DNA of 64,000 nucleotides from a virus. Shown one piece after another: positions 7,833-64,000 of the stretch. The DNA is taken from IMG/VR virus record IMGVR_UViG_3300037419_001472, positions 1-64,000 of that record; one strand, given 5' to 3'. Each line of letters opens with the position of its first letter. The stretch's first letter is position 1. The notes under the pieces are model-generated. The model was not told the DNA's origin and did no database searches. It saw only the letters and a list, made by a program, of their open reading frames with translations. The position numbers were made by a program, and so were the translations under genes.

Positions 7833-8972
7833 TTACCTATCGCGAGTAAGCGGCATTACCACGTAGGTCCCGCCGTCCTCGACCTTGAAGATCGCGGCGT
7901 TCTTGCCGTCGGTCATCTCCAGCTTGACCTCGGCGTCCTGGGGGACCATCTTGAACCAGTCGCGGAGGTAGCGGGGGTCGAAGGTGATGTCCACCGGGCC
8001 GCCCTGCGTCGCCAGGTCCAGCTCGACCTCGGACTCGCCCACGTCGGCCGCATTCGTCGTGACGACGAGCCGCTCGGGATCGAACCGGAAGTCTGCCCCG
8101 CGAGACTCCTCGCTCGTCGTGATCGCGGCCTGCTCGACGGCCAGGGCGAACGGCTCGACCTGGAACCGGCAGCTCGCCGAGCTGCTGCTGGGGAACACGT
8201 CCTGGTAGCGGGGAAAACGGCCCTCGACGAGCCGCGAGTAGATCTCGGCCCGCTCCGTGCGGACCAGGATGGCCGAGCCATTCGCGACGCCAGCCAGGTG
8301 GACCGGCGGGTCGTCGTCCGTGATCGACTTCAAAATCAACCGCAGTGCCTTGGCCGGGATGACCGGGTTCGGGTTGCCCGAGAAGCCCTTGCCCTCGACC
8401 TCGGCCGGGACGACCTGCAAGGCGAGCCGGCGGCCGTCCGTGCCGACGAGCGATGCCCGCCCCTCGGGGAATTCGAGCAGCGTCCCGCCCAGGGCATAGC
8501 GCGTGCTCTCCACGTCGGTGGCGAACGCGGTCCGGGCGATCAGCTTGCGGACATTGCACGCCATGATGACGTGATAGTCTGCCGCATCGAAGGCCGGGAC
8601 CTCGGGGAAGACGCTCGGGTCCTCGGAGGGAAGCTTGTGCTTGCTCTTGCGGCCCCGGATCGTGAACGCATTCTCGTCTTCCAACGTGAGCGTCATCTCG
8701 TCGTCCTGGCACGTCCGCAGGATCGACGTGAAGCGGGCGGGCAGGACGAGCCGGGCCGGAGCGTCGGCCTTGATGCCGAGCACCAGCTGGCGGATGCCGA
8801 CCTCCAGGTCTGTCGTCTGGAGCAGCGAGCCGCCGTCGGGGTCGACGACGAGCAGGCTGTTCTGCAAGATCGGCTTGGGCGAGCGGGCGGGCACGACGCC
8901 GCTCACGGCGGCGATGGCCTCGAGCATGGGGAGCCGCTCGAATCGGATCGTCTGGGTCGCGGTCGCGGTCAT
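7833..8972 (-). CDS. dnaN: DNA polymerase III beta sliding clamp (DnaN)
   Basis: 379 aa. The N-terminus (FERLPMLEAIAAVSGVVPARSPKPILQNSLL) and overall three-domain length and pattern are typical of DnaN. Confidence 0.85.
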   Translation of the reverse strand: MTATATQTIRFERLPMLEAIAAVSGVVPARSPKPILQNSLLVVDPDGGSLLQTTDLEVGIRQLVLGIKADAPARLVLPARFTSILRTCQDDEMTLTLEDENAFTIRGRKSKHKLPSEDPSVFPEVPAFDAADYHVIMACNVRKLIARTAFATDVESTRYALGGTLLEFPEGRASLVGTDGRRLALQVVPAEVEGKGFSGNPNPVIPAKALRLILKSITDDDPPVHLAGVANGSAILVRTERAEIYSRLVEGRFPRYQDVFPSSSSASCRFQVEPFALAVEQAAITTSEESRGADFRFDPERLVVTTNAADVGESEVELDLATQGGPVDITFDPRYLRDWFKMVPQDAEVKLEMTDGKNAAIFKVEDGGTYVVMPLTRDR

Positions 8973-9918: not shown

Positions 9919-10995
9919 TCAGACACACTCGGCCAACTCGCAGGCATTCGACCAGGCCTCACGCTTGATCTTGGCGCCGCTGCCCCACCACATGCTCTCC
10001 AGCTTGCGGCTCGCAGCCCCCTCGCTCTTGCGGGTCGGGGCATCATGATCGATGAATTCTGTGACCGCGTTGTAGGCACACCAGGCCGTGCCCTTGATGC
10101 CGGGCATGTCGTGGCCAATGCCGCCCTCGAACAGCCCGGTCAGCACGTCGCGGATGCCCTTCGCCGTCTCCGCGGCGCGGGGCGACTTCTCCGGGTCCTC
10201 GGGGTCCGGGTAGATAGCCTCGAAGTAGTTCGCGAGCAGCCGGCTGTTCATCTGGAACCCGGCGAGGGCATCGATCCGCGGCTTGAGGTCGTCGTAGAAC
10301 CGCTCGGCCAGGCCGAGCACGCGCTGGGCCTCGCGGACCTTGCTCACGAGGTCGCCCGAGTGGCGGATCGCGATCCCCTGCCCCTCGCCCCCGGCCAGGG
10401 CGACGGCGAGCGTGTTCTGACACACCACCCTTTGCGGGGTCCACAAGACCCTCAGGGCCGCCGAGCCGTCGTGAGCGTTGCTGAGCAACAGGTAGCGCTC
10501 GACCTCATCGTCCGTGCTCGCCACCTGCATGACGCCAGGCAGCTTCGCCAGCAGCCAGATCCGCTCGCCCGCGCCGAGCGCGCCGGCCGTGTGGTATTCG
10601 ATCTGGCGGTCGGCCGCGATCGAGTCCAAAAAACCGAACGCTTCCTTGTTCTGCACCGGCTTCCACGACCGGCCGACACTCCCCAGCACCGCCCCGGTGT
10701 CGACGCGGACCACAGCGCGGGCCGAGTCCACGCCCCGCCCCTGGAGATGGGCGAACTTCTCGAACTCGACCCCGCCCGGCACCGAGATGGCCAGGGGGAA
10801 GACCCCGACCTCGAAGCCGAGCCCGGCCGCCTCGCTGACCTCGTCCCAGGTCCGCAGCGCCGAGTCGACCCGCTGGCCCAGCTCGTGCCAGGGCAGCTCA
10901 CCCGCGTAAAACATCGAGGCCCGGCCGTCCACGACATTCAGGTTGTGGCGGCGGTTCATGCGCCCGTTGACCAGTTCCGAAGCATCCCAGACCAT
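9919..10995 (-). CDS. DUF932 / phage-plasmid TIGR03299-like protein
   Basis: 358 aa. LPWHELG...YHTAGALGAGERIWLLAKL...LLLSNAHDGSAALRV fits the DUF932 pattern as remembered. Confidence 0.7.
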   Translation of the reverse strand: MVWDASELVNGRMNRRHNLNVVDGRASMFYAGELPWHELGQRVDSALRTWDEVSEAAGLGFEVGVFPLAISVPGGVEFEKFAHLQGRGVDSARAVVRVDTGAVLGSVGRSWKPVQNKEAFGFLDSIAADRQIEYHTAGALGAGERIWLLAKLPGVMQVASTDDEVERYLLLSNAHDGSAALRVLWTPQRVVCQNTLAVALAGGEGQGIAIRHSGDLVSKVREAQRVLGLAERFYDDLKPRIDALAGFQMNSRLLANYFEAIYPDPEDPEKSPRAAETAKGIRDVLTGLFEGGIGHDMPGIKGTAWCAYNAVTEFIDHDAPTRKSEGAASRKLESMWWGSGAKIKREAWSNACELAECV

Positions 10996-26783: not shown

Positions 26784-28358
26784 ATGGCAGCCGCGACGCT
26801 CGACCAGACGGATCCCCTGGCCGAGCCGGCGGCCCGCTTCGACCCTGACGCCGAGGTGGCCAAGTGCGCGGCGAACTGCGCCTACTTCATCAATGCCTAT
26901 GGAATTATTGATGATAGTCAGGGCCACGGCGAGAATGCCACCGGCACGATGCCGTTCCAGCTCTGGCCGGCCCAGGTCCGTCTGATCTGGGAGCTGATGG
27001 CGTTCCGCCTGCTCGTGCTGCTCAAGGCCCGCCAGCTCGGCATGAGCTGGGCCGTCTGTGGCTACGTGCTCTGGCGGTGCCTATTCCAGCGCGGGCAACT
27101 GATCTTTTTGCTCTCGAAGGGGCAGAAAGAGGCCAACGAGCTGCTGCGCCGGGTGAAGGCGATCTATCAGCGGCTGCCTCAATGGCTCCGCGACCGGCTG
27201 CCCCGGGTCGATCCGCGCAAGGACAATGCCAGCGAGATCCTCTGGACCAACGGGTCCTCGATCCAGTCGCTGCCCGCGACGCGCAACGCGGGCATCGGCA
27301 ACGCCGCGTCCGTCGTGGTGATGGATGAAGCCGCGCACATGAAGTATGGCGATGAGCTGTACCTCAACATCAAGCCGACGATCGACGCCGGCGGCCAGCT
27401 CATCCTGCTCTCGACGGCCAACGGGATCGGCGGCCTGTTCCACACGATCTGGGAGAAGGCGACCGAGGGGCTGAACGGTTTCCGGACCATCTTCATCCCC
27501 TGGTGGTGCCGGCCCGGCCGGGACCGCAAGTGGTTCCGGGCAAGGGTCGCGGAGTCCAACGACCCCAAGCTGATCCCGCAGAACTACCCGGCCAACCCGG
27601 TCGAGGCGTTCCTGGCCAGCGGCAACATGCGGTTCGATGCCGCATGGATCAATGCCCAGGCCCAGAACCTCCGCGAGCCGCTCGCGCCGGCCGAGTTGCC
27701 GCCCGCGCTGCGTGACATCCCTGGCCTCAAGGTCTGGACGCTGCCCCAGCCGGGGCGGTCCTACATCCTCGGCGGGGACGTGTCGGAGGGGCTGGAGACG
27801 GGCGACTATGATGCCTGCCCCGTGCTGGATGCCGAGACATGGGAACAGGTTGCCGAGATCCATGGGCACTGGGAGCCGGATGAGTACGCGGCCGCGCTCA
27901 TGAAGGTCGCGGACCACTACAACCACGCCTGGGTCGCCATCGAGCGGAACAACCACGGGCATGCGGTGCTGATCGCGTTCGCGCTGGCACGCGACCCGGA
28001 GACGGACGAGCCACGACCCTTCACGCGGGTCTACAACGGTGAGGATGGCCGCCCTGGCTTTTTGACCACGGCCAAGTCCAAGGGTCCGGGCGTGGACCTG
28101 ATCGCCGCGGCCCTGCGGGATGGCCTGGTGACGATCCGCTCGGTGGCGTTGCTGAATGAGCTGCGGCACTTCAAGCGGCTGCGCGGCGGCAAGCTGGGCG
28201 CGACCAAAGGCAAGCATGACGACCGCGTGATGGGTCTGCTGGTCGCTCTCTGCTCGCTGCGTCTCGGGCACCTGCGGCCATCTCAGGGCGCGCCGGCCGC
28301 CGGTGGCGGCGAGCGAAAGCCAACCTCGAAGTACCTGGGGCACCACCATGCCAGATGA
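26784..28358 (+). CDS. terminase large subunit
   Basis: KARQLGMSW ATPase motif, Walker B VVVMDEAAHM, and a C-terminal nuclease-like region. 524 aa. Confidence 0.85.
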   Translation: MAAATLDQTDPLAEPAARFDPDAEVAKCAANCAYFINAYGIIDDSQGHGENATGTMPFQLWPAQVRLIWELMAFRLLVLLKARQLGMSWAVCGYVLWRCLFQRGQLIFLLSKGQKEANELLRRVKAIYQRLPQWLRDRLPRVDPRKDNASEILWTNGSSIQSLPATRNAGIGNAASVVVMDEAAHMKYGDELYLNIKPTIDAGGQLILLSTANGIGGLFHTIWEKATEGLNGFRTIFIPWWCRPGRDRKWFRARVAESNDPKLIPQNYPANPVEAFLASGNMRFDAAWINAQAQNLREPLAPAELPPALRDIPGLKVWTLPQPGRSYILGGDVSEGLETGDYDACPVLDAETWEQVAEIHGHWEPDEYAAALMKVADHYNHAWVAIERNNHGHAVLIAFALARDPETDEPRPFTRVYNGEDGRPGFLTTAKSKGPGVDLIAAALRDGLVTIRSVALLNELRHFKRLRGGKLGATKGKHDDRVMGLLVALCSLRLGHLRPSQGAPAAGGGERKPTSKYLGHHHAR

Positions 28359-29877
28359 GATCCAACTCGCATCGTCGCCCCCGGACGCCGGATCGGCCGC
28401 CATCGTGGATGGGACGACGGTGGTGAACGCGAAGCCCCGATCTGAGGTCATCATCGGTGGCCCCTACGGCGGCCCCGCATTCGGCAAGGTCGGGATCCTG
28501 CTCTCCCGGTCGATCGATCAGGTCGTGCGGCAGTTCGGCCGCCAGGTCTATGAGCTGATGCTCTACGACTCGGCCGTCGTCTGCGCCTTCGAGTTGCTCA
28601 AGGCAGGGATCCTCTCTGATGGCCTCGTGCTCTCCCCGGCGATCAAGATGGACCCGGGTGAGGTCATCAGCAAGCGGAAGCGCAAGGCCGACCTGAAGCT
28701 GGCCAGTGAGATCTGCGAGGCCGGGATCCGCTCGATGAACGGGCTGGATGAGCCGGTTGACGTGATCCTCGACGAGCTGCTTGAGGCCTGCCCCTTCGGC
28801 TGCTCGCTGGGGGAAATCACCTACAAGTGGGGCACGGGTGAGGACAAGGATCGGCAGATGCACGATTCGATCGTGCCCAAGCCGGCCTGGTCCTGGAACT
28901 TCCGGGTCGATGCCTTCATGAAGGTGCGGGCGATCCGGGGCTGGACCGGGGCCGGATGGCAGGACTACGACCCCGAGAAGTTCGCGGTCCTAACCTGGAA
29001 GAAACGGCACCGAGACCCGCGCGGGCAATCGGGCTTCCGCGCCGCCTACAACCCCTGGAACCTCAAGATCCAGCAGTATCCTGAGTTCGGCGAGTTCCTC
29101 CATCACTTCGCTGACCCGACGATCTTCCTGACGGCCGGCGAGTATGCCAAGGCCGATTACGTGGTGGATCCGGTCACGGGCAAGCGGACGGAGCGCTCAG
29201 TCATCCAGCAGTTGCTCGATGCCCTGGAAGGCTACAAGCGCCGGACGGGACTGGCGCTCCCCCATGGGAGCTCGGCAGGCGTGCTGTCTCCGGGGACCGA
29301 GGGCGGCGCCTACCACAACGGCTTCGATCGGTTCGACATGGAGATCTTCCGGTCGATCCTGTTCAGTTCGCGGGCCGTCCAGGAAGCCAAGCACGGCAGC
29401 AAGGCCGACACGGATTCGAGCCAAGACCTGACCGCGATGGCGTTCACCCGGGGCCGGATCCCGGTCCTGGCGATGTGGCGCTGGCAGGTTCTGTACCGCT
29501 GGGTCGCCCTGAACTGGAGCCGCGAGGTGGCTGACCGGCTGACGCCGATCCCCTCACTTGGGTCCCCCGGCCACGTCCAGGGCGAACTGCTCAACGCCTA
29601 TGCAAACGCCTTCGTGAAGGGGTTCGTGGATGAGGCCCAGTTGCCGGCGATCTGGGACCGGCTGGGCCTGCCCCCGGTTGATGAGGCGGCGATGCGGGCG
29701 CGGATCGAGCAGCGCAAGGCCGCCCAGGTGGCCCAGGCGGCCGTCAGGAAGGGCGAGCCGGTCGAGGGGGATGGTTCATCCTCCGACGACCAGTCTGATG
29801 GCTCGGACGACGGCACCGACAACCAGACGAAGCCCAAGGGCAAGACGAAGCGATCCGGGAAAGCCAATGGGGGATAA
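28348..29877 (+). CDS. portal protein
   Basis: 509 aa, directly after TerL, with an acidic/basic C-terminal tail. Resembles Mu-like DUF935 portals. Confidence 0.7.
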   Translation: MPDEIQLASSPPDAGSAAIVDGTTVVNAKPRSEVIIGGPYGGPAFGKVGILLSRSIDQVVRQFGRQVYELMLYDSAVVCAFELLKAGILSDGLVLSPAIKMDPGEVISKRKRKADLKLASEICEAGIRSMNGLDEPVDVILDELLEACPFGCSLGEITYKWGTGEDKDRQMHDSIVPKPAWSWNFRVDAFMKVRAIRGWTGAGWQDYDPEKFAVLTWKKRHRDPRGQSGFRAAYNPWNLKIQQYPEFGEFLHHFADPTIFLTAGEYAKADYVVDPVTGKRTERSVIQQLLDALEGYKRRTGLALPHGSSAGVLSPGTEGGAYHNGFDRFDMEIFRSILFSSRAVQEAKHGSKADTDSSQDLTAMAFTRGRIPVLAMWRWQVLYRWVALNWSREVADRLTPIPSLGSPGHVQGELLNAYANAFVKGFVDEAQLPAIWDRLGLPPVDEAAMRARIEQRKAAQVAQAAVRKGEPVEGDGSSSDDQSDGSDDGTDNQTKPKGKTKRSGKANGG

Positions 29878-32186: not shown

Positions 32187-33290
32187 ATGCTGCTTTCTGA
32201 TGGACAAATTCTCGACTCGGTCAAGTTCAACGCATTGATCCTTGACCAGTACAGCCGCTACCAGCAGTCATTGCCGACGACCTTCCTCAACCGCACCGAG
32301 GAAGTGAACGCCGATGATGACGAGATCACGACCTACTTCACCGGCAAGGTGTTCGCCGCGGACATCATCGCCGACGACTCGAAGGCGGCCGTCTACGAGG
32401 CCGGCCAGCTCGAGTACGTGACCAACACGATCCCGAACCTGAAGGTCGGCCGCCGGTTCAGCCAGGGCATGATCGCCCGCCTCAACCGGATCCGCGCCAA
32501 CCTGACCTCGCCCGGCATCCGCGGCGAGGTCGACATGTTCACCAACTGGGAGACGACCACGGCGCGGGACCTGATCCGGGCGATTCAGGAACGCAAGAAC
32601 GCTCTGATCTGCGCCATGATGCTCGACTCGATCACCTATGATCGGCTCGGCATTAAGATCACCGGATCCTGGGGGATGCCGAGCGATCTCAAGAGCACGC
32701 CCTCGACGGCCTGGACCAGTACCACCGCCACGCCGATCACCGACATCCTGACCCTGAAATCGTACGCGCAGCAGACCTACGGCGAGACGTACGACAAGAT
32801 CACGATGACGACGCCCGACTTCATCAACATGGCGGCGACGACCGAGTTTAAGAATTTGTTGGCGGGTCTGGTCAACGCGCCGCTGGCCTCGACCGCCTGG
32901 AATGCCTACGACCCGCGGATGATCAAGCTCGCCAGCGAGCTGCTCCAGTGCGAGATCGAGCTGGAGAACAAGCTGATCTTTAGCCAGGGCGAGGACGGCA
33001 CCCAGTCGAATGCCCGCGTGCTGCCGCTGGGCAAGGTGCTGCTGTCGAACCGGGCCGACGAGAAGGACCCCACGGCCTACGACTTCGCGAACGCCCTGGT
33101 CATCGAGGCCCAGGTCGCGGGCCTGGTCGGCGACCCTGACAACGTGGCCGGCGGCCAGGTCTTCGGCCCGTTCGGCTACTTCACCGGCAACGCCGACTTG
33201 AATCCCCCCAATCTGACGGCGTGGGGCGTCGCCCGCGGCTTCCCCCGCAAGCATCGCAAGACCTGCACGGCCGTCCTGACTGTCCAGTAA
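32187..33290 (+). CDS. major capsid protein (lambda gpE-like family)
   Basis: 367 aa, correct position, and a C-terminal pattern resembling the Phage_cap_E family. Confidence 0.7.
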   Translation: MLLSDGQILDSVKFNALILDQYSRYQQSLPTTFLNRTEEVNADDDEITTYFTGKVFAADIIADDSKAAVYEAGQLEYVTNTIPNLKVGRRFSQGMIARLNRIRANLTSPGIRGEVDMFTNWETTTARDLIRAIQERKNALICAMMLDSITYDRLGIKITGSWGMPSDLKSTPSTAWTSTTATPITDILTLKSYAQQTYGETYDKITMTTPDFINMAATTEFKNLLAGLVNAPLASTAWNAYDPRMIKLASELLQCEIELENKLIFSQGEDGTQSNARVLPLGKVLLSNRADEKDPTAYDFANALVIEAQVAGLVGDPDNVAGGQVFGPFGYFTGNADLNPPNLTAWGVARGFPRKHRKTCTAVLTVQ

Positions 33291-47969: not shown

Positions 47970-48398
47970 ATGATATTGCAACGATGCAACCATTGCCCCG
48001 TCGTCCCCGATCGGGAGTGCCTTGGGACCACTGCGGCGTTCGGCTACATGTGCGAATTCGCCCAGAGCGAGGATCCGGTCAAAGTCCGGCATGTCGTCGA
48101 GCGATCGGCGATCGGAGTAGATCCCCAACCGCCTGGGATGATCGCGCGGACGGCATCGCTCGCTGTCGCAGTCGTGGCGCACATCGCAACCGGCATGCAT
48201 CGCGTGGACGACGCAGTTAGGGACGCCCGGCTGGCGATTTGCCAGACGAACGAATGCGGCCACTACCGGACCGAGGAAGGGGCGCCGGCCTGCCTGGCAT
48301 GCGGGTGCGGACGGCGGGGCCTGGAGATCAAGGCCGGGTGGGCCGAGCAGCAGTGCCCGCTCGACCCACCGCGGTGGGGGCCGGTTGAGGTTACTTGA
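47970..48398 (+). CDS. Cys-rich small protein
   Basis: CNHCP...C and ICQTNECGHY...CLACGCG...CP motifs. Start uncertain (47970, 48048 or 48138). Confidence 0.35.
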   Translation: MILQRCNHCPVVPDRECLGTTAAFGYMCEFAQSEDPVKVRHVVERSAIGVDPQPPGMIARTASLAVAVVAHIATGMHRVDDAVRDARLAICQTNECGHYRTEEGAPACLACGCGRRGLEIKAGWAEQQCPLDPPRWGPVEVT

Positions 48399-49968
48399 CC
48401 TCGCGCTGGCCCAGGTGGGCCTTGTAGAACGGCTGATTGACGTCGGTCGTGTTGAAGCCCTCGCTCGGCTGGGGCGAAACGCCCTGGACCGTGTCGAGCG
48501 TGCTGGTCACGACCATGCCGCTCCGGGCGAAAAGCGTCACGAGCCGACGGTCATTTTTGAGCACCGGCGCCGGCGAAGCCGTGGCCGGCGGATAATTCCC
48601 GGGCCCCGGAGTGGTGCCCGCCATCGCGTCGGCGTCCAGCGGCAGCTCGTAGTAAGTCACGCTCGCCGTGTTTGCCGGGTTCGGGTTCGGGACTCCCGCA
48701 GTGGTCCCCCAGACGGCTCCGCGCGCGTAGACGTCCTCGCGGGCCGCGAGCCAGAAGTCCAGGAACGGAATGGGGTTCATCGATGTCGCCGACGAGTACA
48801 TCGTCGTGGGCACGTAACTGCCGTTCGGATTGAGCATCACGTCAACCGAAAGCGATCCAGGGTCGACCGGCAAGCGCGACCGTTCCTGGAGTTTGTTCCA
48901 GGATGTCGCGTCGATCACCACGCCGGCCGGCAGGAGGATCTCACGTCCACCGGGCGTGGGCACAGGCCGTCGTTCGATTGAGTAGGCGGAATCCCAAAAG
49001 TGAGACTTACCGTTGCCGTTGGCCCATGCTGGCGAAGGGCTGAACGCTGAGGGAGCAGAGTCGCGGAGATTCCCAACGTTGAGTCCCACCCAGTCCTCGC
49101 GCTCCGTCCACTCCAGGGCGTCGTCTACGACCCCATCAGCGTTCTGGTCGTATCCATCCCATCCCTGGTCGACATAGCCGTCGTGGTCGTCGTCCTCTCC
49201 GTTGACCAAAAACAGAAACTCGGGCGTCGGCGGATTGGGGATCGGATTGCCAGCGGAGTCGTAGTAGGTCCGGACCAGAGGCGATGGTGTGCCAGGAGGG
49301 CCGACATTGACGAACCACTCGAGATTGCCCTGGTTGATTGCCAGAGGTGCCTTCGGATTGATCGTGCAAGGGCCAACGACCGTGTAAGCGCGGCCCGTGT
49401 CGCCGAACTTGATCTTGTCGCCCACCCTCACATTCCACCACCAGTTGACCGGCTCGTTGGGAATGGCGCCCGGTGTGATGAATCCGCCCACAAAGGGGGA
49501 CTCTTCGATCATGAGCACGTTTGCTGGCGTGCTGGAGTCGGGAAACGGATAGGTCGCGCCGTTGGTGATCGGATGGGCCGGAGGAAAGGTGGCCGTCGCC
49601 CCTCCAGGAGGTAGCTGGGGGCCGACACTGAACTTGCCGGCGGTATAGTCGGCGGCTGGCTCAATCGGGATCAGTCGGTTGTAGGCAAGCTGAAGCGTGC
49701 CGGCACCGACCGTGCCGACCGCCGGAAGCGTGAGCATAGGGTCGGGCATGAGCCGCAGGCCACGCGGCTCATTCTGGCGGATGGCCGCGTCCCTCGCCCC
49801 CGCAATCGCCCCCGTCAAGACCTGAGCCGCGTCGGTTATGCTTCGCCCTGTCAGTGAGTCGCGGATCAGGGGCAGCGCGATAAGCGACGCAATCAGGATG
49901 ATCGCGAGAACCACCAAGATCTCAACGAGCGTAAACCCTGGGCGGCGGTGACGTGATCGGCGGAACAT
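48391..49968 (-). CDS. prepilin-type N-terminal cleavage/methylation domain protein, large minor-(pseudo)pilin-like
   Basis: RRPG/FTLVEILVVLAIILIASLIAL prepilin signal. 525 aa. Acidic Ca-binding-like NGEDDDHDGYVDQGWDGYDQNADGVVDD. Confidence 0.8.
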   Translation of the reverse strand: MFRRSRHRRPGFTLVEILVVLAIILIASLIALPLIRDSLTGRSITDAAQVLTGAIAGARDAAIRQNEPRGLRLMPDPMLTLPAVGTVGAGTLQLAYNRLIPIEPAADYTAGKFSVGPQLPPGGATATFPPAHPITNGATYPFPDSSTPANVLMIEESPFVGGFITPGAIPNEPVNWWWNVRVGDKIKFGDTGRAYTVVGPCTINPKAPLAINQGNLEWFVNVGPPGTPSPLVRTYYDSAGNPIPNPPTPEFLFLVNGEDDDHDGYVDQGWDGYDQNADGVVDDALEWTEREDWVGLNVGNLRDSAPSAFSPSPAWANGNGKSHFWDSAYSIERRPVPTPGGREILLPAGVVIDATSWNKLQERSRLPVDPGSLSVDVMLNPNGSYVPTTMYSSATSMNPIPFLDFWLAAREDVYARGAVWGTTAGVPNPNPANTASVTYYELPLDADAMAGTTPGPGNYPPATASPAPVLKNDRRLVTLFARSGMVVTSTLDTVQGVSPQPSEGFNTTDVNQPFYKAHLGQREVK

Positions 49969-52328: not shown

Positions 52329-53066
52329 GTGACCCAGACTCCTGACATCTTCGCGGCGCTGGCTGCCCCTTTTTTGGCGGGTGAGGTCAAGACGCGTACC
52401 CAGGGTGGCCGCCAGCTCTCCTACATCACCGCGCGGACGGCGATGAACCGGCTCGATACCGTGCTCGGCCCTGAGAACTGGCGCGACTCCTACCGCTCGG
52501 GGGGCGAAAACTCGATCGTCTGCCGCCTCGAGATCCGCCTCAACAGCGGCGAGTGGCTGGCCAAGGAAGATGCGGGCGGGTTCGCTGGCATGTCCGACTC
52601 GGGTGATGACGACAAGTCCGGGTACTCGGACAGCTTCAAGCGGGCCTGTGTCAAGTTCGGGATCGGCCGGTACCTCTACCGCGACGGCGTCCCGGACTAT
52701 GCCCAGGGTGAGCACGGCGAGGTCCGCGACGAGCCGGCCCGCAGTCAGCCGCAGCCGCCGCGTGACAGCCACCGTGAGGAGCCGCGCGACCACGCGCCGC
52801 GCGGCAATGGGAACGGCGGTGGGTACTCCGGGCCGCCCCGCTCGGGCAAGGCCTTGTTCGCCTGGACCAAGGAACAAGAGCAGCGTCACTCGGTCGGTCT
52901 GCTCAAGTACCTCAACGGCTGGGCCAAGTTGCAGGACTTCCCCGGCCGGATGGTGGACTGGGATGCCGAGCAGGTCGCCCTGGCCCATGCCGAGGCGGTC
53001 CGCAAGCTCCAGTCGGTCCAGGCCGGCGGGTATGAGGAAGCCCACGGCGAGGATGGCACCTACTGA
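52329..53066 (+). CDS. Rad52/Sak-type single-strand annealing protein
   Basis: LSYITARTAMNRLDTVLGPENW...KSGYSDSFKRACVKFGIGRYLY is the Rad52/22 signature. GTG start. Confidence 0.8.
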   Translation: MTQTPDIFAALAAPFLAGEVKTRTQGGRQLSYITARTAMNRLDTVLGPENWRDSYRSGGENSIVCRLEIRLNSGEWLAKEDAGGFAGMSDSGDDDKSGYSDSFKRACVKFGIGRYLYRDGVPDYAQGEHGEVRDEPARSQPQPPRDSHREEPRDHAPRGNGNGGGYSGPPRSGKALFAWTKEQEQRHSVGLLKYLNGWAKLQDFPGRMVDWDAEQVALAHAEAVRKLQSVQAGGYEEAHGEDGTY

Positions 53067-53272: not shown

Positions 53273-54351
53273 TGGCTCTCCCCTGGTTCCGGCTCTATCA
53301 CGAGGCTCGCAATGACGCCAAGCTGCGTCATCTGACCGACGCGCAGTTCCGTGTCTGGTTCAACCTGCTGTGCCTGGCTTCCGAGCAGCCTGATCGCGGC
53401 ACCATCGCATCGATGAATGTCAAACTGATGGCCCTCGAGGTCGCCGGCGGGGACGTTGATCTTCTCAAGGAAACGCTGGAAACACTGGAAACGTTTCATT
53501 GCGTTTCATTGCGTTTCATCAGCGTTTCCGAGGCCTCGATTTGCTTCATCAATTTCCAGAAGAGACAGTTTCAGGGCGTTTCAGGAAACGGTAAGACCTC
53601 GACGGATCGAGTTCGCAAACATCGTGAAGCCAAGAGGTTGCGTCAACATGAAACAGGTGAAACAAGTGAAACGCCAGTGAAACGCGATGAAACGCTAGTG
53701 AAACGCGATGAAACGCCCCCAGATACAGAGTCAGAGGCAGAAACAGAGTCTCTCGCTCCGCGGGCGCGCGAGACGACGGCCCCCACGGGGGGGATGATCT
53801 GCGTCGATGAGCCGGAGGACTTCGGCGACTCCGGGCTCGGGCTGCCTCCCTTCCCGGCCGATGGCGGGTATGCCCTGGATGGACCTGAGTACCCGTTCAA
53901 GCCGCCGGTCGAGCAGGTCCGGGCGATCTACGACGAGCTCTGGCGGGCCTTCGGCCACCGCCGGCTCTGTGCGGATTACCTCCGCAATCGCGGCCGCTAT
54001 GACTCGCGGGCCTGGCGCTGGGCGATCCAGCGGTGCCAGACGAAGGGGCTGCGGCCTCGCTCGCTCGGCTATCTCGGCAAGATCGCCTCAGACTGGCAAC
54101 CGGGCGATGAACCCGCGCTACCCCGGCCGGCGCCGGCCCCGGTGAAGGTCCATGAGCCGATCCCCCAGCGCGAGCCGCTGACCCCCAGTCAGAAGGCCCG
54201 GTATGCCCCCCTGCCGGGGCATCGGCTAGTCGATCCTGACGCCGGGATCCCGATCGCGGAACGCATGGCCAAACTCGCGCCGAACCATCCCCTCCGGAAA
54301 GCGTGGGAAGCCGGCCATGGACCTGTGGCCGTGGCCAGGGAGGCGCAATGA
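53272..54351 (+). CDS. phage replisome organizer / replication initiator (N-terminal Phage_rep_org_N-like)
   Basis: WFRLYHEARNDAKLRHLTDAQFRVWFNLLCLASE. SD GGAGGGA lies 5 nt upstream. Contains the iteron array. ATGA-coupled to DnaB. Confidence 0.7.
   Translation: MALPWFRLYHEARNDAKLRHLTDAQFRVWFNLLCLASEQPDRGTIASMNVKLMALEVAGGDVDLLKETLETLETFHCVSLRFISVSEASICFINFQKRQFQGVSGNGKTSTDRVRKHREAKRLRQHETGETSETPVKRDETLVKRDETPPDTESEAETESLAPRARETTAPTGGMICVDEPEDFGDSGLGLPPFPADGGYALDGPEYPFKPPVEQVRAIYDELWRAFGHRRLCADYLRNRGRYDSRAWRWAIQRCQTKGLRPRSLGYLGKIASDWQPGDEPALPRPAPAPVKVHEPIPQREPLTPSQKARYAPLPGHRLVDPDAGIPIAERMAKLAPNHPLRKAWEAGHGPVAVAREAQ
53469..53714. repeat. iteron array (origin-like): 17 copies of the GAAAC/GTTTC hexamer core
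   Basis: 3x GGAAAC (9-bp spacing), then inverted 3x GTTTCA plus GTTTCC (10-11 bp). Next come GTTTCA x2 and GGAAAC (53568-53589), then 7x TGAAAC at 9-11 bp spacing (53649-53714). Confidence 0.85.
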
Positions 54352-55757
54352 GCCGCACCCCAGCCCGGAACGGCCAGGGGGGACGGATCCCCGATGCCCC
54401 AGATGTCCAGGAATCCCTCCGGCTCTGGCCGCACTCGGTCGAGGCTGAGAATGGGGTCCTCGGCTCGGTCCTGCTCGATCCCGAGGTCCTGAATGACGTC
54501 GCGGGCCTGCTCAAGCCCGAGGATTTTTTCGGGGCCGCGCGGGGCGAGTGCTGGCAGGTGATCCTGGACCTGTACCAGACCGCCAGGGCGATCGACCCGA
54601 TCACGGTCGGGGACGAGTTGAAGCGGGCGGGCAAGTTCGACGACATCGGGGGTGACTTCGGGCTGTCCCAGATCCTCGGCGCGGTCCCCCATTCCGCCAA
54701 CGCGAAGCACTACGCCGAGGTCGTCCGGGAAAAGTCGGTCGCCCGCCAACTGGCCCATGCGACCCGATCGATCCAGGGCGACATCGCCAGCCAGACCCAC
54801 ACCGCCGATGACCTCCTGGAACGGGCAGAAACGGCCGTCTTCGCGATCGCCGAGAGCCGGACCCAGGAGAGCACGCATCAGGCCAAGGTCGCCGTCTCCG
54901 GCGCCCTGGCCCGGCTGGAGCGGCGCCGCCGCGGCCCATCGGGGATCTCCTGCGGCCTGGATGCCCTGGACCGGATGACTGACGGGTTTCAGCCCGGCCA
55001 ACTCGTGATCCTGGCCGCGCGGCCCAGCATGGGCAAGACCCAGCTCGGCCTGAACGTTTTCGAGTACTGCACGCTGGTCCGGCGCGAGCCGGCCCTATTC
55101 GTGAGCCTTGAGATGAGCAGCAATGAGATCGGCGAGCGGCTGGCGGTTTGCCGGTCAGGCGTCCCGAATTACAAGTTCAAGGATTTTGATTCAATCACGA
55201 CGGACGAGTGGGGCCGGCTGCTCAAGGCGGATACGGACTGGGCCAACGCCCCCGCCATGATTGACGACTCCCCCGCGCTGTCGACGCTCCAGATCACGGC
55301 CCTGACGCGGCGATGGAAGGCTCGTGCCGGGCTCAAGCTGCTGATCGTGGACTATCTGCAACTCGTGACCCCCAGCGAGGGAGAGTCCCGCCAGGAAGAG
55401 GTGGCCTCGATCAGCCGTGGCCTGAAGCGGATCGCCCGTGAGCTGGGCATCGCGGTCGTCTGCCTCAGCCAGCTCAACCGATCCAACGAGCAGCGACAGG
55501 ACAAGAAACCGCGGATGTCCGACCTCCGCGAGTCCGGGGCCATCGAGCAGGATGCCGACGTGGTGCTCCTGATGCACCGGCCTGATTACTACGACCCCAG
55601 CGACAAGCCGGGTTACTGCGAGCTGATCGTGGCGAAGAACCGCAACGGCGCGGTCGGCTCCGTCGACCTGAGGTTCTTCAAGGACCAGGGGCGGTTCGAG
55701 CCCTGGGTTTCCGACGTGGACCCGTCCCGGCCCGAGATCGACCCCTCCCAATTCTGA
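54348..55757 (+). CDS. dnaB: replicative DNA helicase DnaB
   Basis: PHSVEAENGVLGSVLLDP N-domain, Walker A ARPSMGKT, Walker B LLIVDYLQL, and SQLNRS...RESGAIEQDADVV. Confidence 0.9.
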   Translation: MSRTPARNGQGGRIPDAPDVQESLRLWPHSVEAENGVLGSVLLDPEVLNDVAGLLKPEDFFGAARGECWQVILDLYQTARAIDPITVGDELKRAGKFDDIGGDFGLSQILGAVPHSANAKHYAEVVREKSVARQLAHATRSIQGDIASQTHTADDLLERAETAVFAIAESRTQESTHQAKVAVSGALARLERRRRGPSGISCGLDALDRMTDGFQPGQLVILAARPSMGKTQLGLNVFEYCTLVRREPALFVSLEMSSNEIGERLAVCRSGVPNYKFKDFDSITTDEWGRLLKADTDWANAPAMIDDSPALSTLQITALTRRWKARAGLKLLIVDYLQLVTPSEGESRQEEVASISRGLKRIARELGIAVVCLSQLNRSNEQRQDKKPRMSDLRESGAIEQDADVVLLMHRPDYYDPSDKPGYCELIVAKNRNGAVGSVDLRFFKDQGRFEPWVSDVDPSRPEIDPSQF

Positions 55758-55858: not shown

Positions 55859-56221
55859 ATGCCCGCGCTGCTGAGCCAGCCCCCGATGCCGCGAGCCAAG
55901 AGCGACCCCGCGGCGTTGTTCGACCCCGAGTGCTGGATCTATGACCCGGTGGCTCGCGTGGGGATCCCCCGGGAGACGATCCGGCCCTGCTCGTGCGGCT
56001 CGACCGGATTCGTGCTGATCCTGAGGGGTGACGGGACGACGACCTTCCCGGTCCATTGCGCGGCGTGCTATGTCGAGCCGCGATTCCGGATGGCTCGCCC
56101 TGATGACCTGGATTACGCGACGCTCGACGTCGGCACCGGCCGCGTGACGTACACGCGGGATGCCGCCGAGATCAACCGACACCGCCGCATGGCGGAAGCG
56201 AGGGCGAAGAGTGGGCGCTAA
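55859..56221 (+). CDS. Cys-containing hypothetical protein (120 aa)
   Basis: Start preceded by GTGAGGCGAGCGACC. CSC...CAAC motifs. Confidence 0.5.
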   Translation: MPALLSQPPMPRAKSDPAALFDPECWIYDPVARVGIPRETIRPCSCGSTGFVLILRGDGTTTFPVHCAACYVEPRFRMARPDDLDYATLDVGTGRVTYTRDAAEINRHRRMAEARAKSGR

Positions 56222-57251
56222 CTCGAAGATCGAATGGACCGACCACACGTTCAACCCCTGGCGGGGCTGTACGAAGGTCAGCCCCGGCTGTGCCAACTGC
56301 TACGCCGACACGCAGAGCAAACGCAACCCGAAGCTGCTCGGCGTCTGGGGCCCGAACGGGACGCGCGTCGTCGCGGCCGACGCGAAGTGGCGCGAGCCGC
56401 TCGCCTGGGACAAGGCCGCGGCCGAGGCGGGCCGGCGGCATCGCGTGTTCTGTGCCAGCCTGGCTGATGTGTTCGAGGATTGGCGGGGGCCGCTCCACGA
56501 CGTGAAGGGCGAACGCCTCTTCAGTTACGTGGACGTGAACGCTTCGGCCATCGACGGCTCGGTGGGCGCGACCCTGGATACTGCCAGGGCGAAGCTCTTC
56601 CAGTTGATCCGGCGGACGCCCTCGCTGGACTGGCTGGTGCTGACGAAGCGGCCGGAGAACGTCCTGCATCATCTCCGGGCCGCCGCCCATTGGGTCGACG
56701 GCGAGGGCGAAGATTGCCGCTGGCTCGACGCCTGGCACCACGGCGACGCCCCCGCGAACGTCCGGCTCGGGACCTCGGTCGAGGACCGCAAGCACGGCCT
56801 GCCCCGCGTGGACGTGCTCCGCAAGATCCCCGCCCAGATCCGGTTCCTCTCGGTCGAGCCGCTGCTGGAAGACCTCGGCGAGATCGACCTGACGGGGATC
56901 CACTGGGTCATCGTCGGGGGCGAGAGCGGCCCGGGCGCGCGGCCCATGCACCCCGATTGGGTCCGCTCGATCCGCGACCAGTGCCTGGCGCAAGGGGTCG
57001 CCTTTTTCTTCAAGCAATGGGGCTGCTGGCGGCCCGACGGCCAGGGGCATCCGTTCCTGAAGGATGCCATCAATTCCCGCGACGCACACCCGGCCGCGGC
57101 GGTCCTGCCCGACGGCCGCGTGCTCCCCGACATCAGCGAGATCGGGGCCAACGGCGACGGGGCCGCCGTCGTGCGCCGCATGGACAAGAAGGACGCCGGC
57201 CGGATGCTGGACGGCATGCTCTGGAGCGAGTTCCCCCAGCCCGTGAGTTGA
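56211..57251 (+). CDS. phage Gp37/Gp68 family protein (DUF5131)
   Basis: SKIEWTDHTFNPWRGCTKVSPGCANCYA is the hallmark N-terminus. GTG start. Confidence 0.85.
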   Translation: MGANSKIEWTDHTFNPWRGCTKVSPGCANCYADTQSKRNPKLLGVWGPNGTRVVAADAKWREPLAWDKAAAEAGRRHRVFCASLADVFEDWRGPLHDVKGERLFSYVDVNASAIDGSVGATLDTARAKLFQLIRRTPSLDWLVLTKRPENVLHHLRAAAHWVDGEGEDCRWLDAWHHGDAPANVRLGTSVEDRKHGLPRVDVLRKIPAQIRFLSVEPLLEDLGEIDLTGIHWVIVGGESGPGARPMHPDWVRSIRDQCLAQGVAFFFKQWGCWRPDGQGHPFLKDAINSRDAHPAAAVLPDGRVLPDISEIGANGDGAAVVRRMDKKDAGRMLDGMLWSEFPQPVS

Positions 57252-61501: not shown

Positions 61502-62410
61502 GTGACGATTCGCGCGACGATCATTGAGGATTCGATCAGCCCCGCTGGCGCCCGGCTGACGACGTTCGAACTGTGCTACCCCAGGGTCATCCACGCCGAG
61601 TTCATGACCCACCGGGTCTTCAGCCGCAATGCCAGCTCGAGCCGGGCCATTCCCTGGGCCCGGATGAAACAGTGGATCCTCGACGACCCCTATGTCCCGA
61701 TCCACTGGGGCAAGAACCAGAAGGGCATGCAAGCGACCGAGGAATTGACGGAGGATGAGCAGAAGGCGGCCCGCAAGTTGTGGCTCGAGGCCAGCTATGA
61801 TGCCGTTGGCCACGCCGACCGCCTCATGTCCCTCGGCATCCACAAGCAGATCGTCAACCGGCTGGTCGAGCCCTTCGGCCACATCAACGTCATCTGCACG
61901 GCGACAGACTTCGCCAACTTCTTCGCCCTGCGGATCCACAAGGCCGCGATGCCCGAGATCCAGTGCCTGACCGTCCGCATGGCCCGCGCCTACGCGGCGA
62001 GCGGGCCCGATCTGCGGCGAATGGATGCCGATGACCCCCATTGCTGGCACCTGCCCTACGTCTCGACGGCCGAGCGCGAGACGTTCTCGCTGAATAACCT
62101 CCTGGCCATGTCCTCAGCCCGCTGCGCCCGCGTCTCCTACCGGACGCACGAGGGCAAGGCCCCGACGCTCGAGGAAGACCTGAAGCTGTTCGAGCAGCTC
62201 GTCGGCGGTGAGCCGAAGCATGCGACGCCGACCGAGCACCAGGCCGTCCCGCTCGCGAGGGTCATCGGGGCCGGCATCGCCTCGAGCATGACCGGGAACC
62301 TCCGCGGCTGGTTCCAGCACCGCAAGCAGATCCAGGGCGAGGCGGCCCGGCCGGACTTCGACTGGCGGGCCCGGCTCGTCGAGTGGGACGGCGTCGATTA
62401 CGTCGTCTGA
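61502..62410 (+). CDS. thyX: ThyX-like flavin-dependent thymidylate synthase
   Basis: FMTHRVFSRNASSSRAIP corresponds to the ThyX RHRxxSxxxxSxR motif with R changed to T. 302 aa, longer than typical ThyX. GTG start. Confidence 0.6.
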   Translation: MTIRATIIEDSISPAGARLTTFELCYPRVIHAEFMTHRVFSRNASSSRAIPWARMKQWILDDPYVPIHWGKNQKGMQATEELTEDEQKAARKLWLEASYDAVGHADRLMSLGIHKQIVNRLVEPFGHINVICTATDFANFFALRIHKAAMPEIQCLTVRMARAYAASGPDLRRMDADDPHCWHLPYVSTAERETFSLNNLLAMSSARCARVSYRTHEGKAPTLEEDLKLFEQLVGGEPKHATPTEHQAVPLARVIGAGIASSMTGNLRGWFQHRKQIQGEAARPDFDWRARLVEWDGVDYVV

Positions 62411-62458
62411 CCGCGATCCATCCATCAACCTTTTCGACGCCGAAATGGAGAGAGCAGC

Positions 62459-64000
62459 ATGAGCATCGCCGACACCAACCGGCCCGCGGCGACCGCGACG
62501 GCCCCCGCCCGGGGGCTGACGATCCAACCCTATTTCTGCCCGCCGGACTGCAACCCCTACGCTCGGATCGGCTGGCGCACCGTGACGGCCCAGATCAAGG
62601 GGGATGACGGCCGGTTGATCTTCGAGCAGCCCAGCGTCGAGGTTCCCGAGGACTGGTCCGACCGGGCCGCCAACATCGTCGCCAGCAAGTATTTTTATGG
62701 CGACCTGTCGAAGGGATTCGACCCCACCCAGGGAGGGCGCGAGCATTCCGTGAGTCAACTCATCGGCCGGGTCTGCAACACGATCGCACACTGGGGCAAA
62801 GTGGATGGATACTTCGCCACGGCCGCGGATGCAGTCCAGTACCGGGAGGAGTTGGCGGCGCTGTGCCTCGGCCAGTATGGCGCATTCAACTCGCCGGTCT
62901 GGTTCAATGTCGGCCTGAGCCAGGAATACCACCTCAAGGGAGCAGCGAATAACTGGCGCTGGCATAAGGGGGAGGGACGGGCGGTCCCGTGCCTGGATGC
63001 CTACGAGTACCCCCAGGGCTCGGCCTGTTTCATCCAGAGCGTCGCGGATGACATGGGATCGATCATGGATCTGGCCCGTTCCGAGGCCATGCTGTTCAAG
63101 TATGGCTCGGGCACCGGGACTGACCTGTCGACGCTCCGCAGCACCAAGGAAAAGCTCCAGGGGGGTGGCAAGCCGAGCGGCCCGGTCAGCTTCATGCGGG
63201 TCTACGATGCGATTGCCGGCGTCGTCAAGTCGGGCGGGAAGTGCCTCGCCCCGGACCAGCCGATCCTGACCGATCGGGGAGTGAAGCCGGTCGGCGACCT
63301 GGCCGACCTCGAAGGCGGGTTCGTCGTGCTGTCCTACTCGCGCCGGCTCGGCCGGGTCGCGGCGAAGCGGGCGCATGCCTGGTGTTCCGGGGTCAAGCCG
63401 GTCATCTCCGTCATCACGGACAAGGGCGAATTCCGGGTTTCTCACGATCACCCGATGATGCTGAAGGATGGCATCTGGAAGCGGGCCGCCGACCTGAAGC
63501 CCGGCATGAGCCTGATGCAGGTCAGCACGGATCGCCACAAGGATGGCTATGTCCGCGTCGGACTCCAGGACGGCATGAAGGGGAAGGCCCTGTTCCATCA
63601 GCTCGTTGCCAAGGACATCCTCCGCTGGGATCTCCAGGGCAAGATCGTCCATCACGAGAACAAGGACAAGGGCGACAACCGGCCGGAAAACCTGCGGCTG
63701 AAGACCCAGGCCGAGCATGCCGCCGATCACGGGCGAGGCCGGGCGTTCTACACCGATGGGCATCCTGGCGAGCGGAACGGTATGCATGCCTCATCCGCGT
63801 TCTGGTCGGACTCCGAGCGGTCCAGCGAGTACCGCCTCAAGCAATCCGCGGTCCTGAAGCGGCGCAACCCAGCCATGCTCCAGAAGGCAGCAGTCCGCAA
63901 GCGGATGCTCAACCTCGGATATTCGCTCATCAACGCGGGGCATGACCTCTCGACGTTCGCCGGTTACGTCCTCGCCCGCAAGGCCGAGGGCCGACGCTGC
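62459..64000 (+). CDS. nrdJ: class II (B12-dependent) ribonucleotide reductase NrdJ, interrupted by an intein; partial (runs off window)
   Basis: Self-translated because the frame is open to the window end and absent from the track. Motifs: VEVPEDWSDRAANIVASKYF, NSPVWFNVG, GSACFIQSV, FKYGSGTGTDLSTLRS, GGGKPSGPVSFMRVYDAIAGVVKSGGK, then Cys. Confidence 0.85.
   Translation, partial: MSIADTNRPAATATAPARGLTIQPYFCPPDCNPYARIGWRTVTAQIKGDDGRLIFEQPSVEVPEDWSDRAANIVASKYFYGDLSKGFDPTQGGREHSVSQLIGRVCNTIAHWGKVDGYFATAADAVQYREELAALCLGQYGAFNSPVWFNVGLSQEYHLKGAANNWRWHKGEGRAVPCLDAYEYPQGSACFIQSVADDMGSIMDLARSEAMLFKYGSGTGTDLSTLRSTKEKLQGGGKPSGPVSFMRVYDAIAGVVKSGGKCLAPDQPILTDRGVKPVGDLADLEGGFVVLSYSRRLGRVAAKRAHAWCSGVKPVISVITDKGEFRVSHDHPMMLKDGIWKRAADLKPGMSLMQVSTDRHKDGYVRVGLQDGMKGKALFHQLVAKDILRWDLQGKIVHHENKDKGDNRPENLRLKTQAEHAADHGRGRAFYTDGHPGERNGMHASSAFWSDSERSSEYRLKQSAVLKRRNPAMLQKAAVRKRMLNLGYSLINAGHDLSTFAGYVLARKAEGRRC
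63242..64000 (+). mobile_element. intein with HNH homing-endonuclease domain inserted after KSGGK of NrdJ (C-terminal end beyond window)
   Basis: Block A CLAPDQPILTDRG, block B-like FRVSHDHPMML, and HNH motif IVHHENKDKGDNRPENLRLKTQAEH. The expected extein continuation TRR.. is absent at the junction. Confidence 0.8.

Follow-up and report, generated by a model that had tools for sequence, protein, structure and literature searches.

We analysed 64,000 nucleotides of the IMG/VR virus record IMGVR_UViG_3300037419_001472 (positions 1 to 64,000 of that record; the whole stretch is referred to as the window), which end within nrdJ, a gene encoding a class II adenosylcobalamin-dependent ribonucleotide reductase (RNR). 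This phage-like nrdJ very probably carries a genuine, and probably active, class-1 intein with an in-frame HNH homing endonuclease of the I-HmuI-like type. With the same high degree of confidence we place the intein between K261 of the reductase and the Thr that opens the motif TRRAA, in the middle of specificity loop 2. An original prediction, made from the letters of the window, had proposed an HNH-type intein that splits the class II RNR at KSGGK/TRR (a slash within a sequence marks a splice junction throughout), and every element of it that could be tested, i.e. the site, the motifs, the nuclease and the fold, held. The gene and the visible part of the intein comprise the following features:

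62447..62452, plus strand: Shine-Dalgarno-like GGAGAG, 6 nucleotides 5' of the nrdJ ATG (direct reading)
62459..63241, plus strand: nrdJ N-extein (residues 1-261), class II adenosylcobalamin-dependent ribonucleotide reductase (Pfam, NCBIfam)
63227..63241, plus strand: K257-S-G-G-K261, N-terminal half of specificity loop 2, directly 5' of the insertion (alignment to T. maritima NrdJ)
63242..64000, plus strand: intein, visible part (residues 1-253 of an expected ~336-350), reaching the window end (continuous frame, family profile)
63242..63280, plus strand: intein block A, CLAPDQPILTDRG; its nucleophile, Cys1, is encoded at 63242-63244 (start of TIGR01445)
63416..63463, plus strand: intein block B region, TDKGEFRVSHDHPMML (S67-x-x-H70; family conservation)
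63545..63730, plus strand: HNH nuclease domain (intein residues ~102-163; Pfam core at 63626-63721)
63731..64000, plus strand: helical region 3' of the HNH core (motifs NGMH, FW and LINAG), running off the window (model of the P0001 intein)

By direct translation, the nrdJ frame opens with the ATG at 62459 on the plus strand and stays open through 64000, giving 514 codons with zero stops. As had been pointed out, it is missing from the program-made list of open reading frames (ORFs), since this list leaves out frames that run off the end. Pfam assigned residues 50-137 of the 514-residue fragment to Ribonuc_red_2_N (PF08471) and residues 188-261 to Ribonuc_red_lgC (PF02867), the latter match ending exactly at residue 261; both the class II N-terminal domain and the start of the RNR barrel were thus detected in the host protein. 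NCBIfam model NF005122 matched residues 10-261 of the N-extein with E = 4e-83, and several NCBIfam NrdJ equivalog models matched the fragment, every match terminating at residues 259-263. The Pfam matches, and likewise those of HNH_3 and TIGR01445 to the insert (see below), are far beyond chance. The thiyl-radical Cys (NPC motif), the redox Cys pair and the C-terminal zinc-ribbon tail of the reductase fall past 64000. The best named relatives of the N-extein in a protein search were the N-terminal parts of NrdJ from Planctomycetota, with approximately 55-66% identity. Two overlapping ORFs, one antisense to nrdJ (557 residues, 62114-63787) and one in the +2 frame (234 residues, 63241-63945), gave no family matches, look like high-GC artefacts and were discarded.

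RNR homology stops at ...VVKSGGK (residue 261), and Cys262 is the first residue of an insert that continues in frame. Its codon occupies 63242-63244, in agreement with the start coordinate of 63242 given in the original prediction. The strings quoted there, GPVSFMRVYDAIAGVVKSGGK, then CLAPDQPILTDRGVKPVGDL, FRVSHDHPMML and IVHHENKDKGDNRPENLRLKTQAEH, are all present in the translation, which indeed does not return to RNR sequence by 64000. The NCBIfam model of the intein N-terminal splicing region, TIGR01445, matched residues 262-334, beginning at Cys262, with 26.2 bits for the insert alone (cut-off 24.5) and 24.2 bits for the whole fragment. With the model starting at this residue, and with Cys in first position in 59/59 relatives (see below), the proposed block A with Cys1 is borne out. 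The same applies to FRVSHDHPMML, which had been described as block B-like: it contains S67-H-D-H70, in agreement with the block B motif T/S-x-x-H. Within the family, T59, D60 and H70 do not vary and D69 is kept in 95%, and an S/T-x-x-H motif is present in the relatives listed.

Homologues lacking the intein are contiguous at the insertion site. The intein-less homologue P0006 reads VVKSGGK/TRRAAKMQTLKC, and the 925-residue class II RNR of PDB entry 7b9p reads K-S-G-G-T-T-R-R-A; the comparison with intein-less alleles that had been proposed thus finds both uninterrupted at KSGG-x-TRRAAKM, with K or T at position x. Insertion at the KSGGK/TRR loop is further evident from intein-bearing relatives, which resume with Thr or Ser followed by RRA where intein-less homologues read VVKSGGK/TRRAAKM. 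A chimera spliced in silico matched 7b9p with E = 5e-122. To align the site with solved structures, a short query was composed of the window N-extein and the C-extein of the relative P0141; window residues K257-S-G-G-K261/T-R-R-A aligned with the K-S-G-G-T-T-R-R-A of 7b9p and with K202-Q203-G204-S205-R206-(gap)-R207-R208-G209 of T. maritima NrdJ (PDB 1xje). K202 and Q203 of the T. maritima enzyme belong to loop 2 and, controlled by the allosteric effector, point to the base of the substrate (PMC3267527); by this alignment, therefore, the intein splits the specificity loop. The conserved KSGGK/TRR site was thus correctly recognized, but it belongs to the allosteric specificity loop 2 and is not strictly an active-site loop. 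Before splicing, the precursor would presumably be either inactive or without regulation.

The far end of the intein was evaluated in relatives. An exhaustive profile search (profile of 343 positions) against 1.84 billion representative proteins yielded 14,981 matches at E <= 1e-3, 1,570 at E <= 1e-10 and 175 at E <= 1e-30. Approximately 60 of these match the full profile within proteins of 1100-2400 residues, with the match starting at residue ~150-650 and mostly at 190-320; they are complete NrdJ proteins, many of them with one to three additional inteins. Both junctions could be located in 59 of the 63 full-length profile matches. In these 59 relatives the insert lies between KSGG-x and Thr or Ser followed by RRA, and NrdJ continues afterwards; the intein family spans at least 59 clusters at 50% identity. 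Their junctions are composed as follows:

First intein residue: Cys in 59/59 relatives
Last intein residue: Asn in 59/59 relatives
Residue +1: Thr in 47 and Ser in 12 of the 59, then RRAA
Residue -1: K in 23, T in 19, R in 6, S in 5, A in 4, G in 1 and V in 1 of the 59
Penultimate intein residue: S in 18, H in 13, A in 12, F in 8, L in 7 and Y in 1 of the 59
Intein length: 336-367 residues, median 342 (59 relatives)

A terminal His-Asn had been expected. The Asn is last in every one of the 59 relatives, but only 13 have His before it, so the motif is to be relaxed to xN; judging from these junctions, a penultimate His is not a defining feature of the loop 2 intein family. P0001, found in a first protein search (55% identity, 97% coverage), carries the same insert, 52% identical to the window intein, and resumes with ...GVVCAN/TRSAARMNTLRC. 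A 130-kb viral contig (L003) has the same intein in its NrdJ, and the closest intein is that of P0141, with 54.5% identity to the window copy. The 253 intein residues of the window align with the first 253 of the 336 residues of the P0141 intein and with the first 268 of the 350 residues of the P0001 intein. The C-terminus had been predicted just beyond the window; these relatives would instead place the junction further on, with approximately 82-95 intein residues (250-285 nucleotides) expected past 64000. In the C-terminal lobe, where the blocks of the family include FGSY, NH(R/K)V and VY(D/S)(V/I)EVD...DDK...HN(F/Y), block F of the family alignment carries a conserved insertion of approximately 10 residues; most members have VEVDCPTxDDKSxxSGHNF there, and those closest to the window have VEVDDxExDDKRxWxEHNY. 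A genome scan with the patterns [GS][VI][IV]KSGGKC and NGMHx[SA][SA]xFW returned 22 pattern matches and no confirmed relative.

The region around the thiyl-radical Cys (NPC) is the most frequent site of inteins in RNR (PMC2677866). Inteins at the NPC site likewise interrupt the RNR catalytic subunit at a highly conserved functional motif, whereas the window intein sits approximately 170 or more residues upstream of them, in loop 2. P0001, L003 and many of the 59 relatives have a second intein at the NPC/C site, and in L003 (5215-10218 of this IMG/VR contig) and P0001/L001 this second intein at the thiyl-radical site contains an HNH domain as well. The window nrdJ may likewise have a second intein beyond 64000.

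The presence of an HNH-type endonuclease within the insert, also claimed by the original prediction, was corroborated by Pfam and by the match of the family profile to I-HmuI. HNH_3 matched residues 390-421 of the fragment (E = 1.4e-9, approximately 37.8 bits versus a cut-off of 24.8). The core residues H137-H138, N146, N150-L151, H159 and H163 (intein numbering) are all present, and H138, N150, L151, H159 and H163 are 98-100% conserved in the family. In the model of the P0001 intein (see below) they correspond to a beta-beta-alpha metal-finger core with strands E140-143 and E156-159 and helix H162-176. Residues 33-96 of I-HmuI, the HNH homing endonuclease of Bacillus phage SPO1 (PDB 1u3e), align with the family profile at E = 2.8e-9 over a beta-hairpin and the HH...N...NL...H motif, and helical segments follow the core in both. 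However, I-HmuI is encoded in a group I intron while the window nuclease is embedded in an intein, the structural match between the two is weak, and the C-terminal helical region of the window shows no detectable sequence relationship. I-HmuI nicks one strand of the DNA.

In the helical region downstream of the HNH core, N179, M181, F187 and W188 are conserved in the family, and the P0001 intein model places helices over residues ~200-295. This region is presumed to be the DNA-binding part of the endonuclease. Pfam gave no family matches for it in the window and only a sub-threshold HNH_repeat match in the helical region of one relative. NUMOD-like DNA-binding motifs, which we had suspected after the HNH core, were likewise unsupported by the Pfam search.

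The fold was evaluated with an AlphaFold model of the intein of P0001, the closest full relative in the first protein search, built from an alignment with 19 relatives that included the window among its rows (mean predicted local distance difference test, pLDDT, 87.1; predicted template modelling score, pTM, 0.78). An earlier model from a 5-sequence alignment had reached a pLDDT of 49 and was discarded. The P0001 model comprises beta structure over residues 1-113, the beta-beta-alpha unit, helices over ~200-295 and beta structure again over 297-349. When this model was compared with the PDB using Foldseek, ranks 1-46 were proteins of the intein fold (HINT), nearly all of them inteins, and included PI-PfuI, Mtu RecA, Ssp DnaB, Npu DnaE and NrdJ-1; I-HmuI followed at rank 47 (E = 0.034). 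Consistent with this, the family profile matched the Spl DnaX mini-intein (7cfv; E = 2e-5) and a DnaE intein (7qil; E = 0.0018) among solved structures. The best matches among predicted viral structures were a Bacillus phage SP-15 protein with a Hint domain and, from phages, DNA polymerases, RNR and terminases that bear inteins. The predicted HINT fold is thus found via the P0001 intein, the window itself spanning the N-lobe alone.

Members of the family also occur outside RNR, in the proteins P0123 (521 residues; Cys1 ... VAN/S), P0204 and P0238, which suggests occasional ectopic jumps. When the window was compared with each of 53 relatives, intein identity and N-extein identity correlated weakly (Spearman rho = 0.23, p = 0.10), and the intein was the more similar of the two in 33 of the 53 comparisons, in which the N-extein includes the variable N-terminus. 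Both results would fit horizontal spread of the intein, and are suggestive only.

Knowledge of in-frame HNH inteins dates from 1997; they represent a small minority of inteins. In a recent survey of actinobacteriophages (bioRxiv 10.1101/2025.01.02.630785), LAGLIDADG nucleases were present in 712 of 784 inteins, while in-frame HNH was one of four non-canonical kinds that together accounted for 63 inteins; the hosts of the non-canonical inteins were DNA polymerase, minor capsid, terminase and thymidylate synthase. The phage in-frame HNH inteins resemble the window intein in that a HINT N-lobe, an HNH domain and a HINT C-lobe follow one another in one frame within a gene of nucleic-acid metabolism. 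None of those surveyed interrupts an RNR, whereas the host of the window intein is NrdJ and its site is specificity loop 2. A further likeness was found with NCBIfam NF052663 (intein-containing RtcB family protein), the intein part of which matches residues 11-163 of the insert (E = 3.7e-13), spanning the splicing N-lobe and the HNH core. Host protein and site are different in that case, and the whole-protein score of 49 versus a cut-off of 1050 bits is as expected for a match to the intein only. This match indicates, at the level of sequence, that related HNH inteins are already catalogued.

In 50,697 GenBank phage records, a tblastn search with the window intein returned only distant HNH/Hint matches, none above 32% identity or 64% coverage of the query. 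Every GenBank phage NrdJ row listed matched across the loop 2 site in one uninterrupted piece, and in 279 of 348 phage NrdJ records the match extends over 80% or more of a query that includes this site. In the open literature searched, which lacked many subscription papers and the intein registries, an intein at RNR loop 2 is nowhere described. In metagenomic data, viral contigs included, the loop 2 intein family is abundant. The window intein is thus a divergent member of an already known, metagenome-common intein family, with at most 55% identity to anything searched. A more far-reaching proposal is that the loop 2 HNH intein represents a so-far unnamed RNR allele and site at which splicing is an obligatory, possibly condition-dependent switch of deoxynucleoside triphosphate (dNTP) synthesis. 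The features that may distinguish it are the mostly non-His penultimate residue, the CPTxDDKSxxSG insertion in block F and the jumps into non-RNR proteins; moreover, as the split loop links the allosteric specificity site with the catalytic one, splicing might switch the dNTP supply after translation in phage infection. We regard this proposal as rather unlikely.

Several observations count against a complete and active intein in the window. The window copy has no close relative, its intein reaching at most 54.5% identity and its N-extein 61.6%. Its C-terminal lobe, terminal Asn, +1 Thr and C-extein fall past 64000, and a search for the parent contig with an exact 39-mer of the window end gave zero matches among viral, genome and metagenome contigs. 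It deviates at two family-conserved positions, R120Q and H167R, of which the second falls in a segment after H163 that is shortened in the window copy and in P0141. Finally, one member of the family, P0002/L002 (L002 1304-3229), has lost the terminal Asn (..FVSS), with 16 unrelated residues and a stop thereafter, and its NrdJ C-extein was not found within 2 kb downstream; L002 has either decayed, been rearranged or been assembled as a chimera.

The window copy could accordingly itself be decayed or truncated, i.e. a 5' fragment of nrdJ with an intein whose C-terminal junction or C-extein is gone, in a pseudogene or after a rearrangement. P0002/L002, which ends in ...GIFVSS-SRWDAKPD and a stop with no RNR C-extein detectable in the 2 kb downstream, exemplifies such a state, and the end of the window copy does fall past 64000. 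Nevertheless, we consider this explanation improbable. Among the 63 full-length profile matches, 59 resume NrdJ with an intact Asn and a Thr or Ser at the junction, and within NrdJ the exceptions are two, P0002 (decayed) and P0121 (which ends before the junction). Moreover, the window copy bears the marks of purifying selection. In the family alignment, 65 positions are at least 85% conserved; the window copy spans 46 of them and retains 44, including C1, T10, T59, D60, K61, D69-H70-P71, H137-H138, N150-L151, H159, H163, N179, M181 and F187-W188. All 514 codons are free of stops, the 253 intein codons show no frameshift, and the GC content at third codon positions (GC3) is host-like: the intein, with a GC content of 0.653 and a GC3 of 0.854, equals the N-extein (0.649 and 0.847; GC3 of the whole nrdJ frame, 0.85), and thus shows no compositional trace of recent transfer. 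The window nrdJ is, in addition, housed in a compact nucleotide-metabolism and replication module beside thyX. With 44 of 46 conserved positions kept and GC and GC3 equal to those of the extein, the window copy reads as a maintained element, not a decaying one.

A second explanation holds that the intein is complete but has lost one activity, either with a dead endonuclease, which would render it immobile and vertically inherited, or with conditional or slow splicing that serves as an RNR switch. Decay of the endonuclease belongs to the homing cycle, and two HNH-deleted mini-inteins occupy the same site, P0124 (...KSGGS/CLMGG...VVVHN/TRRAAKM) and one in the 49.6-kb viral contig L004. Both share the site (KSGG-x/C...HN/TRRAA) and clearly homologous splicing lobes with the window intein, but have the HNH and helical regions deleted (~150 residues in total), whereas the window copy keeps its nuclease. 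Also in favour of a lost activity are the shortened segment after H163, with His167 replaced by Arg, in the window copy and P0141, and the fact that conditional protein splicing is documented for other inteins, e.g. that of RadA (PMC4513877). All HNH core residues (H137, H138, N146, N150, L151, H159 and H163) are present, however, and the sequence holds nothing that indicates a sensor. We judge a loss of this kind to be very improbable in the window copy.

That the insert is no intein at all but a free-standing, fused or intron-encoded HNH gene that lies in frame with nrdJ by chance is almost certainly wrong: HNH homing endonucleases within or next to the RNR genes of phages mostly stand free or are encoded in introns (PMC3653736, PMC2677866), but here the transition from extein to insert has neither a stop codon nor a new start, the insert opens with Cys exactly where RNR homology ends and fits the model of the intein N-terminal splicing region, the HNH core comes after more than 100 residues of beta structure of the HINT type, relatives have the terminal Asn directly before Thr or Ser and RRAA, and the overlapping antisense and +2-frame ORFs are without family matches.

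For an active loop 2 intein carrying an HNH endonuclease in frame, the following course of events is proposed. One precursor would be translated from the whole gene, with a HINT domain formed by the N-terminal lobe (intein residues ~1-113) and the C-terminal lobe past the window. Splicing would take the standard route, in which an N-S acyl shift at Cys1 is followed by transesterification onto the +1 Thr, by cyclisation of the terminal Asn and by an O-N shift, and would rebuild a continuous ...KSGGK-TRRAA... loop and hence an active reductase. During co-infection, the HNH domain of the excised intein would cut or nick intein-less nrdJ alleles, its target being presumably the KSGG/TRR coding sequence (intein-less GTCAAGTCGGGCGGGAAG/ACNCGNCGNGCN), and repair off the intein-bearing copy would spread the element (homing). 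The window copy is probably competent for splicing, and its nuclease would act on this target by a nick or a double-strand cut.

The window looks like a phage or a prophage. Minus-strand genes, an SMC-like ATPase among them, extend up to approximately 17 kb, and a long plus-strand block follows. nrdJ sits in a compact nucleotide-metabolism and replication module, adjoining thyX. The genes assigned in the window are:

3918-4820, minus strand: DNA methylase
4771-6252, minus strand: SNF2 helicase
7833-8972, minus strand: sliding clamp (DnaN)
9919-10995, minus strand: DUF932
26784-28358, plus strand: large terminase (TerL)
28303-29877, plus strand: portal
32187-33290, plus strand: major head protein
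52329-53066, plus strand: Rad52-like protein
54303-55757, plus strand: DnaB helicase
56160-57251, plus strand: DUF5131
61502-62410, plus strand: ThyX; nrdJ comes next

The best named relatives of the N-extein being from Planctomycetota, and the GC content of the window being 0.66, a planctomycete host is suggested. Three further elements were observed in passing. A candidate type-P5 twister self-cleaving ribozyme (Rfam RF02684; 16218-16288, minus strand) gives a full-length match with the conserved core intact, at 55.5 bits versus 37.6 for the gathering score, and is situated between genes, close to the switch from minus-strand to plus-strand genes. A tRNA-like gene of 96 nucleotides (7475-7570, minus strand) scores 46.8 bits with the Rfam tRNA model, and is called by ARAGORN as a candidate tRNA-Asp with anticodon ATC; it folds into a cloverleaf with approximately 21-23 additional bases in the anticodon arm, which may be an intron or an insertion. 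At 48391-49968 on the minus strand, a protein with a prepilin-type N-terminal methylation motif is encoded.

The window intein leaves the current understanding of inteins and of RNR unchanged. The junction of its family, always with Cys1 and terminal Asn and rarely with a penultimate His, could, together with the compact HNH nuclease, be of interest to those who mine inteins as tools. For annotation, this phage nrdJ should be entered as a single intein-bearing gene rather than as a truncated RNR next to an 'HNH endonuclease'; the mature reductase relies on splicing to restore specificity loop 2.

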